From an uncultured Gemmatimonadales bacterium (GTDB lineage: Bacteria > Gemmatimonadota > Gemmatimonadetes > Gemmatimonadales > GWC2-71-9), in the NCBI GenBank assembly GCA_963779755.1, contig CAVZZO010000001.1, positions 2,016,001 to 2,080,000 of the forward strand: DNA of 64,000 nucleotides. Direction: 5' to 3'. This document shows, one piece after another, positions 24,193-55,517 of this stretch. The first letter of the stretch is position 1. Each line of letters begins with the position of its first letter. A program made the translations under genes and the position numbers. The notes beneath the pieces are model-generated. The model worked only from the letters and a program-made list of their open reading frames with translations, ran no database searches and was not told where the DNA came from.

Positions 24193-24230
24193 GTTGAGTC
24201 GTATGGCGGAGGACTGCTCGGCGATCCCTT

Positions 24231-24269
24231 GCCGTCCTGCCGTCCTGCCGTCCTGCCGTCCTGCCGTCC
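24231..24269. repeat. Octamer array (GCCGTCCT) x ~5
   Basis: Directly before the GGAGGA RBS of the STAS gene. Confidence 0.9.
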
Positions 24270-28232: not shown

Positions 28233-28311
28233 ACCCTCTCGAGACCCTCGACCCTCTTGACCCGCCGGTAGAGGTCGAGGGGGCTGAGATGGTCGAGAGG
28301 TCGGCGAGGGT
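28233..28311. repeat. Inverted pair of degenerate short-repeat arrays (GACCCTC.. / ..GAGGGTC)
   Basis: accctctcgagaccctcgaccctcttgacc ... ggtcgaggggg...ggtcgagaggtcggcgagggtc. Confidence 0.6.
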
Positions 28312-28337
28312 CCCATCCCCCGTTAACTTCCTTCCGC

Positions 28338-29564
28338 ATGCCTCCCGTCCACGTTACCTCCGAAATCGGCGCCCTCCAGAGTGTGCTGGTCCATACGCCC
28401 GGCCTCGAGCTCCAGGCGGTCACGCCCGGGACGCGCGAAGACTACCTCTACGACGACATCATCGACCTGGAGATCGCTCAGCGCGAGCACCGGAAGTTTG
28501 TCCAGGTGCTGGGGGAGTTCGCCCAGGTGCACCAGGTGTCGGAGCTGCTGGTGCAGGTGCTGGATCAGCCCGCCGCCCGGGAATACGTCATCACCAAGAC
28601 CATGGATGTGCTGGCCTCCGACGCCCTGGCCCAGGCGATGACCGCGCTGCCGGCCGACGCGCTGGTGCGGATGCTGGTCGAAGGGGTGGAGGAGGAGGCG
28701 GGCCCCATCGCCCGGTCGCTGAACGAAGCCGGATACATGTTCCCGCCGCTTCCCAATCTCTTTTTTCCCCGCGACATCGGCTTCGTGATCGGCGACCGGG
28801 CCGTGGTGGGTTCCATGCGCCACGGCGTGCGCTGGACCGAGGAACTGCTGGTCAAGGCCCTGTTCCAGTTTCATCCCGAGCTGGAGAATGCCGGCCTGCT
28901 CTACGACGGCTCGGAAGAGCGGCGCAACAACTATACGCTCGAAGGCGGCGACGTTCACCACCTGCGCGAGGATCTGCTGGTGGTGGGCTTCAGCGAGCGC
29001 TCCTCCCCCGCGGCGCTGGACCAGCTTTGCGAGGTGGTCTTCGATCGCGGCACGGTCACCGACGTCATCATCGTGGTGATGCCCAAGGAGCCCACCGCCA
29101 TCCATCTCGACATGCTCTTCACCCAGGTGGATCGCGAGCGCTGCGTCATTTACCCGCCGCATTTCGTGGGGCCCGAGCGGCTGGCCATCCTGCACCGGCG
29201 CAAGGGCCAGCAGGGGGTGCGCGAGATGCCCAACTTCTTCGCCGCGCTGCAGGCCGTCGGGCTGCCGCTGGAGCCGATCTTCTGCGGCGGCGAACACCGC
29301 GCCACCCAGGAGCGGGAGCAGTGGAGCTCCGCCTGCAATTTCCTGGCGCTGCGGCCCGGCGTGCTGCTGAGCTACCACCGCAACGAGGCGACCCTCGAGG
29401 CGCTGGCCCGGGGCGGCTTCCGCATCCATCCCGGCGCCGACCTGCTGGCCGGCCGTCCGGCGCCCGAAGGTCCTACGGTGATCACCATCGAGGGCAGCGA
29501 GCTGGTTCGCGGGGGCGGAGGCCCGCGCTGCATGTCCCTGCCGCTCCGGCGGGAAGATCCATGA
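28338..29564 (+). CDS. arcA: Arginine deiminase
   Basis: VTSEIG.L, YLYDDI, PNLFFPRD, LEGGD, HLD, GSEL.RG.GGPRCMS.PL.R. Confidence 0.9.
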   Translation: MPPVHVTSEIGALQSVLVHTPGLELQAVTPGTREDYLYDDIIDLEIAQREHRKFVQVLGEFAQVHQVSELLVQVLDQPAAREYVITKTMDVLASDALAQAMTALPADALVRMLVEGVEEEAGPIARSLNEAGYMFPPLPNLFFPRDIGFVIGDRAVVGSMRHGVRWTEELLVKALFQFHPELENAGLLYDGSEERRNNYTLEGGDVHHLREDLLVVGFSERSSPAALDQLCEVVFDRGTVTDVIIVVMPKEPTAIHLDMLFTQVDRERCVIYPPHFVGPERLAILHRRKGQQGVREMPNFFAALQAVGLPLEPIFCGGEHRATQEREQWSSACNFLALRPGVLLSYHRNEATLEALARGGFRIHPGADLLAGRPAPEGPTVITIEGSELVRGGGGPRCMSLPLRREDP

Positions 29565-30349
29565 GCGGGCTCACGGCCTATCCCGACCGCACTCTGGGAG
29601 AGCGGGCCGTCGAGCATCTGCAGGGGGGGCCCCGGTCGGCCGCCGACCTGACCCGCGACATCCTGGGCCTGCGCAACGCGCCGGAGGTCATCGCCGAGCG
29701 CCTGACGGTGGCGTTGCTGGGCGCGGACCCGCGGGTGCGCCAGCTGCCCGACGGCCGCTGGGCGGTAGCCTCGGCCGCGCGGGTCTCCTCGCCCATCGGC
29801 GAGTGCAGCTTCGCCGTCGTGGATGTCGAGACCACCGGCGCCCGGGCCGGCGACGGGGATCGGGTCATGGAAATCGCGGTCGTGGCCGTTTTCGGCGCCC
29901 GGGTCGAGATGATCCTGGATACGCTGGTGAATCCGGGACGGCCCATTCCCTGGTGGGCCACCTCCGTCACCGGCATCACCGACGGGATGGTCCGCGGCGC
30001 CCCATCCTTCCACGAGGTAGCCGACCAGGTGCTGGCGGCGCTCGCCGGCCGGGTATTCGTCGCGCACAACGCGCGCTTCGACTGGCGTTTCGTGGATGCG
30101 GAGGTCCGGCGTTCCCGCGCCCTGGCGCTGGACGGCACCCGGCTCTGCACCGTCCGGCTGGCCCGCCGGCTGCTGCCGGGGCCGCGTTCCTGCGGCCTCG
30201 ATGCGCTGAGCCGCTTCTTCGGGTTCGACAACCCGGCGCGCCATCGCGCCGGCGGCGACGCGCTGGTCACCGCCTGGTTGTTGCAGCGGCTGCTGGGGCT
30301 GGCCGGCGAGCGGGGTGTGGGGACGCTGGAAGAGCTGGGGGCGCTATGA
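29561..30349 (+). CDS. DEDDh 3'-5' exonuclease (DnaQ/PolC-epsilon-like) with N-terminal extension
   Basis: VVDVETTG, VAHNARFD, HRAGGDA; ATGA overlap with arcA. Confidence 0.9.
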   Translation: MSGLTAYPDRTLGERAVEHLQGGPRSAADLTRDILGLRNAPEVIAERLTVALLGADPRVRQLPDGRWAVASAARVSSPIGECSFAVVDVETTGARAGDGDRVMEIAVVAVFGARVEMILDTLVNPGRPIPWWATSVTGITDGMVRGAPSFHEVADQVLAALAGRVFVAHNARFDWRFVDAEVRRSRALALDGTRLCTVRLARRLLPGPRSCGLDALSRFFGFDNPARHRAGGDALVTAWLLQRLLGLAGERGVGTLEELGAL

Positions 30350-31260
30350 CCCTGACGCACGATTTCCATGTCGGATCGCTGCGCTGCTTCACCCTGGAAG
30401 GCGGGCGGCAGCGGCTGGACGGCGGCGCCATGTTCGGCGTCGTTCCCAAGCCGCTGTGGGAGCGGCGCATCCCGGCCGATGCGCGCAATCGCATTCCGCT
30501 GGCGCTGCGCTGCCTGCTCATCGAGCATCCCGAAGGGCTGGTCCTGGTGGATACCGGGCTGGGCAACAAGGAAGATTCGAAATTCCGCGATATCTACGGC
30601 GTGGAGAACCAAGGCGCCTCCGGCGCGACCCAGCTGGAAGACGCGCTGCTGGACCTGGGGTACCGGCCGGAAGAGGTGCGGTGGGTGATCAACACGCATC
30701 TGCATTTTGATCACGCGGGGGGGAATACCCGGGCGGCAGGACGGCAAGGCGGCGGGACGGCAGGCGAGGCGCAGCTTTCCTTCCCCAATGCGACCTACAT
30801 GGTGCAGCGGCGGGAGCTGGAGTTTGCCCGGCACACCAACGAGCGCACCCGGGCGAGCTATCTGCCGCACAACTGGGAGCCGGTGGCCGCGGCCGGCCGC
30901 TGGCGGTTGCTGGAAGGCGACGAGGAGGTGCTCCCCGGGATTTCCGTGCGGCTCACGCCCGGGCACATCCCCTTTCATCAGTCGGTTCTGGTGCGCGATC
31001 ACGGGCAGACCGCCTGCTTTCTGGGCGATCTGATCCCCACCTCGGCCCACCTGCCGCTGGCCTGGATCATGGGCTACGATCTGGAGCCGCTGCGGACACT
31101 GGAGACCAGGCGGACGCTCCTGCCCCAGGCGGCAGCCGAGGGTTGGCGGCTCATCTTCGAGCACGACCCGGTGGTGGTCGACGGCATCGCGCGGCAGGAA
31201 GCGAAGGCGGTGGGACTGACCGACGTGACGACCGTTGAGAGAACTGAAGAACAGGACTGA
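30346..31260 (+). CDS. MBL-fold metallo-hydrolase (YtnP-like)
   Basis: LDGGAMFGVVPK.LW, THLHFDHAGG, PGH, WIMGYD, FEHDP. Confidence 0.92.
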   Translation: MTLTHDFHVGSLRCFTLEGGRQRLDGGAMFGVVPKPLWERRIPADARNRIPLALRCLLIEHPEGLVLVDTGLGNKEDSKFRDIYGVENQGASGATQLEDALLDLGYRPEEVRWVINTHLHFDHAGGNTRAAGRQGGGTAGEAQLSFPNATYMVQRRELEFARHTNERTRASYLPHNWEPVAAAGRWRLLEGDEEVLPGISVRLTPGHIPFHQSVLVRDHGQTACFLGDLIPTSAHLPLAWIMGYDLEPLRTLETRRTLLPQAAAEGWRLIFEHDPVVVDGIARQEAKAVGLTDVTTVERTEEQD

Positions 31261-31282: not shown

Positions 31283-31490
31283 CCGTCCTGCCGTCCTGCC
31301 GTCCTGCCGTCCTGCCGTCCTGCCGTCCTGCCGTCCTGCCGTCCTGCCGTCCTGCCGTCCTGCCGTCCTGCCGTCCTGCCGTCCTGCCGTCCTGCCGTCC
31401 TGCCGTCCTGCCGTCCTGCCGTCCTGCCGTCCTGCCGTCCTGCCGTCCTGCCGTCCTGCCGTCCTGCCGTCCTGCCGTCCTGCCGTCCTG
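31283..31490. repeat. Perfect octamer tandem repeat (CCGTCCTG) x26, preceded by (GGACTGA)3 at 31254-31274
   Basis: 208 bp counted directly. Confidence 0.97.
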
Positions 31491-31607
31491 CGACCGAGCG
31501 GCCTCCAATAGAAAGCCGCGAGGAAGTCCTTTAGGGCCGTCCTGCCGTCCTGCGACCGAGCGGCCTCCAATAGAAAGCCGCGAGGAAGTCCTTTAGGGCC
31601 GTCCTGC
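31491..31607. repeat. Two tandem copies of a 62-bp-period element
   Basis: cgaccgagcggcctccaatagaaagccgcgaggaagtcctttagggccgtcctg at 31491 and 31553; inverted copy at 5446-5501. Confidence 0.93.
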
Positions 31608-31612
31608 CCGCC

Positions 31613-31641
31613 TTGCCGTACTCTCGCCCATCTCATAGCTT
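31613..31641 (+). promoter_or_regulatory. Putative sigma70 promoter TTGCCG-N17-TAGCTT
   Basis: Same -10 hexamer as the rex promoter, 17-bp spacer. Confidence 0.6.
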
Positions 31642-31769
31642 CTCCCTTCGCATCGCAGGATGCACCCCGTCCGCGGGAAGGGATCATCCCACCTGTGCTG
31701 TTCGAGGATCAGTCCTGACCCTCTTCTGCCCGTCATTCGCGGACACCGGGCGCTATGGAAGGGGGAGCC
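31642..31769 (+). ncRNA. Candidate structured cis-regulatory 5' leader RNA
   Basis: Nested complementary segments found by eye (see findings); no family assignment. Confidence 0.45.
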
Positions 31770-33272
31770 ATGACCCGCCGTCTGCCTGCACGTCCCAGTC
31801 TCGAACATCTTCGTAAACAGGCCAGGCAACTGCTGCGCGGGGTGCAGCAGGGCAACCCGGAGGCGTGTGAGCGCCTGCGCTCGCTGCTGCCGCCGCCGCT
31901 GCCCGACGAGCCCAGGCTGGCCGACGCGCAACGCGCCATCGCCCGGGAGTATGGGTTTCCCGGCTGGGGCCGGCTCAAGGCCCGGGTGGAGGAGTTGGAC
32001 CGCGCCGCCGATCCGGCGGCCCGGCTGGTGGATGCGGTGAAGGCCGGGTCGGCCACGCGGGTCCGCGCCGTCCTGCAGCAATCGCCGGCGCTGGCGGCGC
32101 GGCTGAACGAGCCGCTGCCCGGTTTCGGCTTCGGCGGCACTGCGCTGCTGCACGCAGTCTCCCACGGCAAGCTGGAACTGGTGGATGTGCTGCTCGATGC
32201 CGGGGCCGACATCAACCAACGCAGCCATTGGTGGGCCGGCGGCTTCGGCGTGCTGGACGACGACGGCGGTCTGGCGCCGCAGCTCATCGCGCGCGGCGCG
32301 CGAGTCGACATCCACGCCGCCGTGCGGCTGGAGATGCGCGAGCGGGTGGAGGCGCTCCTCCGTCAATCGCCGGAGCTGGTGCATGCGCGGGGCGGCGACG
32401 GCCAGACCCCGCTGCACGTCGCACCTACCGTCGAGATGGCCGCCCTGCTGCTGGAGGCCGGGGCGGACATCGATGCCCGGGATGTCGACCACGAGTCCAC
32501 TCCGGCGCAGTACATGGTGCGGGACCGGCAGGGGGTGGCGCGGCATCTCGTGGCGCGCGGATGCCGGACGGACATCCTGATGGCGGCCGCCCTGGGCGAT
32601 CTGGCGCTGGTGCGCGAGTACCTGGACCGGGACCCTTCCAGCCTCCGCACCGAGGTATCGGAGCGGTACTTCCCCCGGCAGAACATCCACAGCGGCGCCA
32701 CCATCTACCTCTGGACCCTGGGCAATCACAAGACGGCGCACCTGGTGGCGCGGGAGTTCGGCCACGAGGACATCCTGCAGCTTCTGCTGGAGCGAAGCCC
32801 GGAAGACCTCCGGCTGGCGGTGGCGAGCGAGCTGGGAGACGAGCCGCTCGGCCGCCGGTTTCTGAAGGCGCGGCCCGGATCAGGGATGGAGATTCCCGAC
32901 AGCGACCGTCGCCGCGTGGCCATCGCCGCGCAGAACAACAATGGCGACGCGGTGCGGTTGCTGCTGGAGGGGGGCTGGCCCGCCACAAGCCGGGGCCAGC
33001 ATGGCGGTACGCCGCTGCACTGGGCGGCCTGGCACGGCAACGCCGCCATGGTGCGGGAGCTCCTGGCGCATGGGGCCGCCGTGCATGTTCGCGGTGACGA
33101 GTACGACCTGCCGCCCCTCGGCTGGGCGCTGCACGGCTCGCTCAACAGCTGGCATCGGGACAGCGGCGATTACGCGCTCACGGTGCGCCTGCTGCGGGAG
33201 GCGGGGGCGGAGCTGCCCCGGCCGGCCAGCGAACTGGAGGGCAGTGACGAAGCCTTGGGCGCGCTGGGGTAG
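31770..33272 (+). CDS. Ankyrin repeat protein with N-terminal LPARPSLEHLRKQAR helical domain
   Basis: GTALLHA, GQTPLH, GTPLHWAAWHG ankyrin repeats; ATG 31770 after GAAGGGGGAG. Confidence 0.9.
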   Translation: MTRRLPARPSLEHLRKQARQLLRGVQQGNPEACERLRSLLPPPLPDEPRLADAQRAIAREYGFPGWGRLKARVEELDRAADPAARLVDAVKAGSATRVRAVLQQSPALAARLNEPLPGFGFGGTALLHAVSHGKLELVDVLLDAGADINQRSHWWAGGFGVLDDDGGLAPQLIARGARVDIHAAVRLEMRERVEALLRQSPELVHARGGDGQTPLHVAPTVEMAALLLEAGADIDARDVDHESTPAQYMVRDRQGVARHLVARGCRTDILMAAALGDLALVREYLDRDPSSLRTEVSERYFPRQNIHSGATIYLWTLGNHKTAHLVAREFGHEDILQLLLERSPEDLRLAVASELGDEPLGRRFLKARPGSGMEIPDSDRRRVAIAAQNNNGDAVRLLLEGGWPATSRGQHGGTPLHWAAWHGNAAMVRELLAHGAAVHVRGDEYDLPPLGWALHGSLNSWHRDSGDYALTVRLLREAGAELPRPASELEGSDEALGALG

Positions 33273-33316: not shown

Positions 33317-33429
33317 CGGGTCCAGTGAAGCGGGGCAGCGGACCGCCCCCACCCTCAGCCGCAGCAGGATGCGCGCGACCGGGTCCAGACATGAAGCACC
33401 GGGGGGAGGCGTGTCCCCGTGGCGATGTT

Positions 33430-33464
33430 CGGACATCCGGCTCGACTGGGTGTCCGTTTTTGTT
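33430..33464 (+). terminator. Terminator-like hairpin in the infC leader (possible L20-leader attenuator)
   Basis: cggacatccgg-ctcga-ctgggtgtccg followed by TTTTTGTT. Confidence 0.65.
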
Positions 33465-33493
33465 CTGGGTGTCTCATTTGCCGGGAGGTTTTA

Positions 33494-34015
33494 CTGTCAA
33501 CGACTGATAGAGAAAAGAGGGTCCGGGTCAATCGGCAGATCCGCATCAGTCCCGTCCGGGTGGTCACGGGGGACGGCGAGCAGCTCGGAGTGATGCCGAT
33601 CGAACAGGCGATGGCGGCGGCCGATGAGCGCGGGCTCGATCTGGTTGAGGTCGCCCCGATGGCGCGGCCGCCCGTGGTCAAGATCATGGACTACGGGAAG
33701 TACAAGTTCGAGGAAGCGAAGGCCGCGCGGGCGGCCAAGAAGAAGCAGCACGTCATCCAGCTCAAGGAAGTGAAGCTGCGGCCGGGCATCGACGAGCACG
33801 ATCTCGAGTTCAAGTCGCGCCACGCCCGCGAGTTCCTGGGTGAAGGCAACAAGGTCAAGCTGACGATGATGTTCCGGGGCCGGCAGATGGCCCATACCGA
33901 GTTCGGGCGCGCGGTGCTCGATCGGGTGGCCGAGTCCCTGGGTGATATTGGCAAGGTGGAAGTCGAGCCCAAGCTGGAAGGGCGCAACATGACGATGGTC
34001 CTGGCGCCACGATAG
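33494..34015 (+). CDS. infC: Translation initiation factor IF-3
   Basis: [33 protein letters not shown] start just after GGGAGG. Confidence 0.96.
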
Positions 34016-55432: not shown

Positions 55433-55517
55433 GCCCGGGTGGTGAAACGGTAGACACAAGGGACTTAAAATCCCTTGAGGCTCACGCCTCGTCTGGGTTC
55501 GAATCCCAGCCCGGGTA
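55433..55517 (+). tRNA. tRNA-Leu (anticodon UAA), long variable arm, CCA not encoded
   Basis: Acceptor GCCCGGG/CCCGGGT, anticodon arm AGGGA-CTTAAAA-TCCCT, variable arm GAGGC/GCCTC, T-loop GGTTCGAATCC. Confidence 0.96.

Follow-up and report, generated by a model that had tools for sequence, protein, structure and literature searches.

Why should a gene for an ankyrin-repeat protein carry some 120 nt of structured RNA ahead of its start codon, and with which part of the gene is this RNA associated? The question is raised by gene P0001 of an uncultured Gemmatimonadales bacterium (assembly GCA_963779755.1, contig CAVZZO010000001.1), which lies in a stretch of 64,000 nt (positions 2,016,001 to 2,080,000 of the forward strand; hereafter the window, whose numbering is used throughout). 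An original prediction, made from the letters of the window, placed at 31613-31990 (+ strand) a structured leader paired with a distinct N-terminal protein module and proposed that the module binds its own leader or that the leader is riboswitch-like. Comparison with related loci indicates that the leader is a conserved and covarying RNA, that its 3′ part is predicted to sequester the Shine-Dalgarno (SD) sequence, and that it accompanies the N-terminal module instead of the ankyrin repeats. As to what acts on the leader, we tentatively favor the module itself.

A conserved and covarying RNA upstream of P0001

Translation of P0001 starts at the ATG at 31770 and not at the in-frame ATG at 31755, the start of the listed open reading frame (ORF), since all 21 full-length homologues (54-63% identical) begin with M[ST]R.LP at the equivalent codon. 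The product has 500 amino acids. Upstream of this codon, the following elements were recognized:

31613-31641, + strand: putative promoter, −35 hexamer TTGCCG (31613-18), 17-nt spacer, −10 hexamer TAGCTT (31636-41)
31650-31663, + strand: hairpin P1, GCAU (31650-53) with AUGC (31660-63), the loop carrying CAGG (31656-59)
31664-31668, + strand: unpaired, conserved linker ACCCC between P1 and P2
31669-31674, + strand: 5′ strand of P2, GUCCGC, pairing with 31739-44
31675-79, + strand: near-invariant junction GGRAA
31680-31690, + strand: hairpin P3, GGGA-UCA-UCCC, GGGA (31680-83) with UCCC (31687-90)
31692-31695, + strand: 3′ strand of PK1, CCUG, pairing with CAGG (31656-59) of the P1 loop
31696-31717, + strand: variable region ending in an A/C-rich linker
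31719-31726, + strand: anti-SD tract CCCUCUUC (CCCTCTTC in DNA), 5′ strand of P5
31728-31732, + strand: 5′ strand of P4, GCCCG; P4 crosses P2
31739-31744, + strand: 3′ strand of P2, GCGGAC, within the loop closed by P4
31747-31751, + strand: 3′ strand of P4, CGGGC
31757-31767, + strand: SD region GGAAGGGGGAG, in which GAAGGGGG (31758-65) is the 3′ strand of P5

Relatives of P0001 were sought in one genome per species; 510 were found and the best 80 loci kept. Fifty-four distinct leaders were aligned by MAFFT (A2, A3), and the structure was written from the compensations visible in this alignment. Adding the eight strongest leaders from plasmid records gave 62 (A7), to which the figures below refer unless another number is given. 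A covariance model (CM), R1, comprised P1, P2 and P3 only, with PK1 and P4 outside it. The 62 leaders, from at least six phyla, share the five helices P1, PK1, P2, P3 and P4, in which 98.7% of 1,410 cells pair, against 37.7-45.6% with the partners slid; a sixth helix, P5, joins the pyrimidine tract to the SD sequence. Changes on both sides occur in 15 of the 23 pairs, a single position showing as many as five pair types, and none of 500 shuffles reaches any of the five measures. In the alignment of 54 leaders made by MAFFT alone, 99.1% of the 1,220 cells are paired, a share that falls to 37.8-44.5% once the 3′ partners are displaced by 1-3 columns; nine of the 23 pairs change on both sides and, again, no shuffle out of 500 attains the observed values. 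The covarying structure upstream of homologues, on which the original prediction had staked itself, is thus present.

P1 is paired in 99.2% of cells, three of its four pairs changing on both sides (for example AU:46 GC:15 and CG:33 AU:13 GC:4 UA:3); in the window's sequence a fifth pair, 31654/31659, forms. In the linker ACCCC that follows, two C columns are invariant in 54 leaders. P2 is 100% paired, with pair 25-132 occurring as GC:41 GU:17 AU:4 and pair 26-131 as UA:61 CG:1. P3 (99.6% paired) varies mainly in its closing pair (AU:54 CG:4 UA:3) and shows one GC to AU change, in L088. All four pairs of PK1 (98.8% paired) change on both sides, pair 11-58 being CG:34 AU:20 GC:2 UA:1 GU:1, and the helix occurs as CAGG/CCUG, AAGG/CCUU, GAGG/CCUC, UGGG/CCCA, CGGA/UCCG and CAAG/CUUG. 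The MAFFT-only alignment gives the same result for PK1, and after realignment to R1 both PK1 and P4 score alike although they lie outside that model. P4 is paired in 95.7% of cells with changes on both sides in four of five pairs (pair 117-138 CG:46 UA:13). The variable region measures 20-40 nt (median 24) and holds lineage-specific hairpins in other leaders, among them long GC hairpins seen in the alignment of L013, L058 and L064. Two candidate pairings were discarded: one proposed by RNAalifold between GGG of P3 and CCC of P4, with one-sided changes only, was replaced by the covarying P3 and P4, and a PK1 longer by two pairs was 47.6% paired, no better than slid.

Every string quoted in the original prediction lies in place, and two of its helices are borne out by compensatory changes, namely GCATC/GATGC at 31650-31663, which is P1, and GTCCGC (31669-74) with GCGGAC (31739-44), which is P2. 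Most of its other pairings fell, and PK1, P3, P4 and the true anti-SD tract had been overlooked. The proposed extension GC.CCC/GGG.GC, which would join C's of the linker ACCCC to GGG at 31748-50, is 75.6% paired without changes on both sides, and where a G in P4 is replaced by A, the P4 partner follows and the GC.CCC partner does not. GAAGGG with CCCTCTTC is paired in 83.0% of cells, and a slide of one or two columns still leaves 80%; it is uninformative because purine and pyrimidine tracts pair in any register. The innermost TCC/GGA falls within the variable region.

A nucleotide profile built without the window's row (nhmmer) recovers 31649-31770 as the only match in the 64 kb (E 9.3e-24), so that the window's copy is a true member; its CM score is 102.8 bits. 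By comparison, the predicted leader of some 120 nt is thus confirmed as a conserved, covarying, structured 5′ leader at 31650-31769.

Folded singly, the leader gives a different impression. The minimum free energy (MFE) of the 135-nt stretch, −50.7 kcal/mol, compares with −49.35 ± 3.85 kcal/mol for 200 shuffles (z −0.35), 76 of which fold at least as well. The original prediction had itself named an energy no better than that of GC-matched shuffles as grounds for abandoning it, and such an energy was found; single-sequence folding was set aside as uninformative. The result would suit a stretch that is no functional RNA, conserved as a promoter or operator or as a recently spread mobile sequence, its pairings by-products of a high GC content. 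This reading is already contradicted by the changes on both sides of most pairs, with slid controls pairing at only about 40%, and we consider it hardly credible.

The hexamers of the promoter TTGCCG-N17-TAGCTT are where the original prediction placed them, and a TAnnnT hexamer lies 6-8 nt before P1 in 49 of 54 leaders (read by eye from the printout); a scan for consensus promoters called no site at the leader. The strict pattern TTGnnn-N16-18-TAnnnT-N4-10 adjoins P1 in 17 of 54 leaders. From the putative promoter, the transcript would be expected to begin only a few bases from P1.

As the original prediction had stated, the leader belongs to no known Rfam family. With Rfam 15 (4,227 models), the whole window yields at the gathering threshold only a tRNA at 55433-55517. 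cmscan of 31620-31790 (171 nt) at E≤10 returned four chance matches, the best with 14.6 bits against a cut-off of 63; in 7 kb around the leader at E≤10 nothing fell on the leader, and in five other loci at E≤1 their leaders were not matched. The leader thus represents a new RNA family within a known class, that of structured cis-regulatory leaders, and belongs to no curated family.

Sequestration of the Shine-Dalgarno sequence

Occlusion of the ribosome binding site had been foreseen with the wrong partner, a 5′ CTCCCTTC that sits between the −10 hexamer and P1; this stretch, 6-8 nt long and unconserved elsewhere, is probably untranscribed or barely transcribed. The idea itself was right, the partner being the internal tract CCCUCUUC at 31719-26. 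In all 54 leaders, the 14 nt on the 5′ side of P4 can form a duplex of 9-13 pairs with the SD region (−11.4 to −15.5 kcal/mol); composition alone accounts for part of this pairing (mean z −1.9 against shuffles). MAFFT and the CM place the lineages in different registers here, and P5 was judged by duplex and swap tests. Its partners are lineage-specific and still complementary, for instance CCUCUCUUC/GAAGGGAGG, CACUCUCUUCU/AGAAGGAGUG and AACCUUGAUGCU/AGCAGAAAGGUU and, in a later set, CCCUUUGUGCU/AGCACGGAGG, AACCUUCUUCCA/UGGAAGGAAGGUU, GCCCUUUUC/GAAAAGGG and UACGACCUCCU/AGGGAGAUCGUA. When strands were exchanged among 56 distinct combinations, the cognate mean was −13.46 kcal/mol and the permuted mean −10.66 ± 0.30 kcal/mol, none of 5,000 permutations being as low as the cognate set; relatedness inflates this test, and the sequence turnover is plain regardless. 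That wholly different P5 sequences stay complementary is another argument against pairings that are mere by-products.

In 49 of 54 leaders, the nested MFE structure joins the SD sequence to the anti-SD tract. Keeping the SD sequence unpaired costs 7.9 kcal/mol on average (range 1.2-13.4) in an energy model that leaves out pseudoknots, and P2 closes instead in the printed examples. P4 and P5 together make a GC-rich trap of about 14 pairs. Exactly 2 nt separate the 3′ strand of P2 from that of P4 in 61 of the 62 leaders, and the other linker has 3 to 6 nt. Because the 3′ strand of P2 thus lies inside the loop of the trap, 2 nt from that of P4, the sensor and the SD trap are mechanically coupled. 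A scan found no terminator-like site within the leader. The mechanism indicated by these pairings is translational control by SD sequestration. A model in which GRAAGGGA mimics the SD sequence and competes for the anti-SD tract was dropped, the pairing appearing in only 4 of 54 SD-free folds. An RNA thermometer was likewise rejected, considering the roughly 14 GC-rich pairs of P4 and P5, the 7.9 kcal/mol needed to release the SD sequence and the large conserved sensor domain.

The trap being the MFE state in so many leaders, the element might simply be constitutive: it could hold translation at a low, fixed rate, shield the 5′ end against decay or be the target of a general trans-acting factor, either another protein or a small RNA. 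A stable 5′ hairpin at or near the putative transcript start is in line with this. A simple SD hairpin would suffice for damping, however, and the pseudoknotted domain, the invariant junctions and the 2-nt linker are costly features that imply recognition; moreover, a host-specific trans factor is hard to square with six phyla and plasmids. We regard a constitutive element as unlikely.

The RNA accompanies an N-terminal module

Within the best 80 loci, 56 encode the N-terminal module, and in all 57 module-bearing ankyrin genes (these 56 and the window's) the leader, alike over about 125 nt, stands before the start codon. They come from Gemmatimonadota, Acidobacteriota, Verrucomicrobiota and one metagenome-assembled genome labeled Vulcanimicrobiota. 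The remaining 24 loci have the same ankyrin body without the first ~80 residues. No leader match was found in 23 of these, including L062, which is cut by a contig end and uninformative. In the 24th, L010 (Gemmatimonadota), a good 3′ half (35.2 bits, E 3.7e-6) is visible of the leader; in its positions 1-420 the SD sequence and this half are kept, the ORF starts MSPKHKAHVE and the module is deleted in frame.

Short forms are dispersed over the tree built from the ankyrin body and require 11 changes, at least six of them forced by well-supported branches. Leader and module have thus been lost together repeatedly. L018 illustrates one such loss: it is 92% identical to L056 and has lost ~327 nt (L018 3900-4060 against L056 3850-4300) with the promoter kept, a single deletion removing most of the leader and the module; there is no in-frame ATG, GTG or TTG just upstream. 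In the ~718 kb of the window and the 80 loci no further leader copy was found, the next match scoring 15.5 bits, and 96 ORFs of 29 loci revealed no conserved gene neighborhood. A unit without fixed neighborhood could be taken for a mobile sequence; the protein tree and protein identities of 50-60% bespeak old divergence and not recent spread. At position 3992 of L036, ATT stands at the start codon position where near-identical loci have ATG, either a rare start or a sequencing difference.

A search of plasmid records with three module sequences (tblastn) returned 5, 18 and 9 records, from which 15 distinct places were fetched (H28, H30, H32 and H33 were left out). Scored with R1, which had been built without plasmid-record sequences, they gave the following upstream matches:

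L081-L085 (Gemmatirosa, Nonomuraea, Methylosinus, Burkholderia, Variovorax): 52-58 bits
L086 (Gemmatirosa): 68.1 bits
L087 (Azospirillum): 42.3 bits
L088 (Ancylobacter): 47.6 bits
L089 (Pseudomonas plasmid): 19.5 bits, E 1.1e-3
L090 (Gemmatirosa): 40.7 bits
L093 (Vibrio): 11.0 bits, E 0.12, marginal, with a compensated P2 visible by eye
L091, L092, L094, L095: no match

The leader thus lies directly upstream of the module start in 10 of the 15 genes at E<0.01, with one more marginal. Behind these modules, the tails are Ank (several families unlike P0001), Ank with Clp_N, LRR and DUF1835. The leader therefore goes with module genes that have Ank, LRR, DUF1835 or Clp_N tails and not with the ankyrin body, which upholds the central intuition of the original prediction that the RNA is linked to the N-terminal module. 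As is typical of an autogenous leader, it is found upstream of the encoding gene across lineages, in 57 of 57 ankyrin-type genes and 10 of 15 others. A scan that started from the leader, over 400 kb of a Gemmatirosa replicon, retrieved only the two module genes of that replicon, the next match having 14.5 bits (E 0.22). From these comparisons, RNA and module appear as one 5′ cassette that travels in front of different protein bodies.

Some further observations concern the plasmid records. Gemmatirosa kalamazoonensis has at least three cassettes, each with its own leader (L081 and L086 on NZ_CP007129.1, L090 on NZ_CP007130.1) and with different tails (Ank+Clp_N, LRR, Ank), which makes it a convenient test organism. 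blastn of two leaders against plasmid records, too insensitive a method, returned only the Methylosinus, the Variovorax and two Burkholderia copies. In L084 (2498-3778), the Burkholderia cenocepacia copy of a 555-aa module-ankyrin protein reads as 427 aa with a C-terminal stretch unlike its Methylosinus and Variovorax relatives, so that the ORF is apparently truncated. L083 holds a group II intron (757-1355, − strand; RF01999 105 bits, RF00029 58 bits) some 1 kb upstream of its Methylosinus cassette.

The module and the protein it opens

P0001 consists of two parts:

31770-32009, + strand: module codons, residues 1-80, with the pattern LPxRPxLExLKKQAK, variable linker, LADAQxxIAREYGFxSWxxLK
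32010-33272, + strand: ankyrin-repeat body and stop codon (Pfam, AlphaFold2, Foldseek)

Residues ~85-500 are ankyrin repeats (Pfam Ank_2 3.8e-29, 101.5 bits against a gathering cut-off of 27.3), which places P0001 in the Pfam Ank clan. AlphaFold2 models the protein with a pLDDT of 88.0, and Foldseek with the whole protein matched ankyrin and DARPin chains only, giving no further functional lead. None of the NCBIfam models of Legionella Dot/Icm ankyrin effectors (AnkF, AnkY and others) recognizes P0001, the best score being 49 bits against a cut-off of 1000; the resemblance is generic repeat similarity only.

The module had been predicted to be distinct from the repeats, and it is: for residues 1-80, neither Pfam (with ANTAR and CAT) nor NCBIfam has a model that scores above its cut-off, and AlphaFold2 (33 sequences) predicts four helices (pLDDT 79.8). 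With this predicted structure, Foldseek found no solved fold (best E 2.4, TM at most 0.36), and ESM Atlas searched with residues 1-80 gave unnamed clusters only, all with scores below 0.9. The module is basic, with 16 K/R against 10 D/E in residues 1-80 (hand count). Its invariant residues are encoded by synonymous codons, Leu by CTG, CTC, TTG, CTT and TTA, Gln by CAG (29) and CAA (23), and Ala by all four; conservation therefore acts on the module protein and is no extension of that of the RNA.

A module profile matches 9,536 cluster representatives at E≤1e-3, in proteins of 70 to 935 aa. The module is nearly always N-terminal (residue 1-10) and often present in two or three copies. Pfam domains in 40 module proteins were Ank in 20, LRR in five, GGDEF in three, a ClpX zinc finger with Clp_N in one and a FliM-like domain in one; ten had nothing. 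The glyoxalase modules that lack a leader keep the conserved core and miss only the first ~10 residues, so that no discriminating set of residues could be drawn from them. P0246 gives a weak Pfam Glyoxalase_8 match (PF20066, 5.2e-5) at residues 8-97, over the module itself, and the N-terminal part of the Glyoxalase_8 model may equal the module.

Genomic setting

Upstream of the locus lie an RNase_T-domain ORF and a metallo-beta-lactamase-fold ORF that ends at 31260. The former (28289-30349, 686 aa) has the RNase_T exonuclease domain at residues 510-663 as its sole Pfam match, its first ~500 residues matching nothing. Between the second ORF and the leader, a perfect (CCGTCCTG)x26 array is followed by a 62-bp unit repeated 2.2 times (31474-31608), which comes directly after the octamer array and ends 5 nt upstream of the −35 hexamer of the leader; two exact copies of its 44-nt core stand there, and none elsewhere in the window. 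The octamer CCGTCCTG and its rotations form three perfect tandem arrays in the window, each with 100% matches:

2514-2672: 19.9 copies
24230-24269: 5 copies
31283-31491: 26.1 copies

These arrays represent a dispersed, strictly homogeneous microsatellite in a GC-rich genome. Downstream of P0001, a terminator-like hairpin (33430-56) precedes infC-rpmI-rplT-pheS-pheT. The hairpin is located inside the N-terminal extension of the listed infC ORF, a GTG ORF in which the match to the IF3 N-domain starts only at residue 37 (window 33419-33520). Translation of infC thus probably begins further downstream, perhaps at a start codon that is not listed.

What acts on the leader

Our leading reading, which we hold tentatively, is that the leader acts in cis to set the rate at which the downstream gene is translated, with the module as its effector. 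The 5′ two-thirds form a compact sensor domain from P1, PK1, P3 and the closing helix P2, with ACCCC and GGRAA unpaired between them, and the 3′ third a long hairpin of P4 and P5 that lays the pyrimidine tract on the SD sequence. An effector on the sensor domain would shift the balance between P2 and P4-P5 and so alter ribosome access. The module might bind its own leader, close the trap and thereby exert negative feedback. Such feedback is plausible without being probable: the module is the only feature common to the regulated genes, their tails are interaction scaffolds and not enzymes, and the module would be the first part to leave the ribosome, beside its own leader.

Several points weigh against feedback by the module. 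L010 is a natural variant with leader and without module, its contig end hiding the 5′ half; conversely, no leader was matched before the three glyoxalase/VOC module genes (L091, L092 and L094) or L095, whose tail is untyped, and the plasmid loci were found via the module and not via the RNA. Because leader and module are adjacent, both can be lost in a single deletion, as in L018, so that their co-occurrence is weaker evidence than the counts suggest; for this reason, the co-occurrence tree was rejected as proof of functional coupling. In Foldseek, the predicted module fold resembles no RNA-binding fold that is known. With so strong a P4-P5 trap, further closing by negative feedback may be unnecessary. 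The energies, computed without pseudoknots, fit an ON switch equally well, in which an effector stabilizes P2 and the trap opens; negative feedback needs the opposite. Finally, a pocket for a small molecule would account just as well for unpaired bases that hardly vary across phyla.

This last point leads to an orphan riboswitch, in which P1, PK1, P2 and P3 would form the aptamer for a small molecule, ion or signaling nucleotide, the ligand would fix P2 and open or lock the P4-P5 trap, and the genes for module proteins would be the regulon. A sensor domain supported by covariation and an expression platform that pairs with the SD sequence in 54 of 54 leaders are both in place, and the architecture is typical of the translational kind: a pseudoknotted core with near-invariant unpaired bases on a covarying, SD-sequestering platform. 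The core sequence is kept across Acidobacteriota, Gemmatimonadota, Verrucomicrobiota, Pseudomonadota and Actinomycetota, the two alternative nested folds are ~8 kcal/mol apart, a gap that a ligand could bridge, and L010 retains a leader without the module. GGDEF domains next to the module in 3 of the 40 proteins scanned are a weak hint at nucleotide signaling. Set against this, the downstream genes have no metabolic, transport or signaling theme: no enzyme or transporter function is common to them, the tails being the protein-interaction repeats Ank, LRR and DUF1835, and the lack of a conserved neighborhood offers nothing that points to a ligand. Furthermore, riboswitch regulons are not known to be strictly coupled to one N-terminal protein domain. 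An orphan riboswitch is a possibility that we take seriously and nevertheless view with doubt.

Returning to the module as the effector, a wider proposal can be made, which we put forward as conceivable but doubtful. The module might be a large, hitherto unrecognized RNA-binding family (no fewer than 9,536 clusters at 50% identity) whose members each recognize the pseudoknotted leader of their own mRNA. Promoter, leader and module would then form a portable self-regulating cassette that in at least six phyla has come to stand before ankyrin, LRR, DUF1835 and Clp_N bodies, and the repeats may sense a signal and trigger release of the RNA.

Relation to known systems

Ribosomal-protein autoregulatory leaders, such as the L20 leader of infC-rpmI-rplT and those of S15 and L1, are structured, often pseudoknotted, and control translation at the SD region. 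The present RNA resembles them as a structured 5′ leader before the gene of its presumed binder, with control of translation initiation via the SD sequence. In contrast to them, its protein is non-ribosomal and lacks any known RNA-binding fold, mimicry of an rRNA site does not come into play, no Rfam leader family matches, and the RNA follows a portable N-terminal domain across architectures. SAM-II, preQ1-II/III and guanidine-III are translational riboswitches that bury the SD sequence in or beside a pseudoknot. With these, the leader shares a conserved pseudoknotted sensor, a covarying SD helix, the absence of a terminator and a length of ~120 nt. It differs in giving no cmscan match at E≤10 on 171 nt and no association with ligand-related genes, and its trap is a separate 14-pair hairpin whose loop donates a strand of the closing helix of the sensor. 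ANTAR and CAT/PRD antiterminators are RNA-binding modules fused to variable sensor domains and act in trans on terminators in operon leaders. Here, too, a small helical module is combined with diverse sensor or interaction domains, and a conserved leader RNA is the presumed target; unlike in those systems, there is no terminator, the module is N-terminal, the putative target is its own mRNA, and Pfam ANTAR and CAT do not match.

The yjdF motif, as described in PMC4793209 and PMC12641257, is an orphan riboswitch candidate found almost only with one gene of unknown function. It has in common with the leader the tie to one protein type of unknown function, which gives no hint of the ligand, and a proposed translational control; in sequence and structure the two are unrelated (no Rfam match), and here the partner is an N-terminal domain across architectures. 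In the open full-text literature, supplements aside, we found no description of the leader RNA. Searches for ankyrin with riboswitch (candidate, Acidobacteria, covariation) returned nothing relevant among the titles listed, the main texts of the surveys PMC5737381 and PMC8632094, again aside from supplements, mention neither ankyrin nor the phyla of the leader, and no title among those listed for DUF1835 dealt with function.

In summary, the novelty of this RNA lies in its tie to a protein domain, kept across several architectures, and not to a pathway. Covariation support is unusually strong, and the range extends from poorly studied soil phyla to Proteobacteria and Actinomycetota. The proposals are testable, with an RNA of ~125 nt, a domain of ~80 aa and hosts in culture, namely Gemmatirosa kalamazoonensis, Methylosinus sp. 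C49, Variovorax paradoxus and Acidobacteriaceae bacterium ZG23-2. Binding of the RNA by the domain would define a new family of RNA-binding domains and a modular route to genes that limit themselves. Were a small ligand to bind instead, the leader would be a new riboswitch class with a regulon of protein-interaction scaffolds, pointing to an unknown signal.

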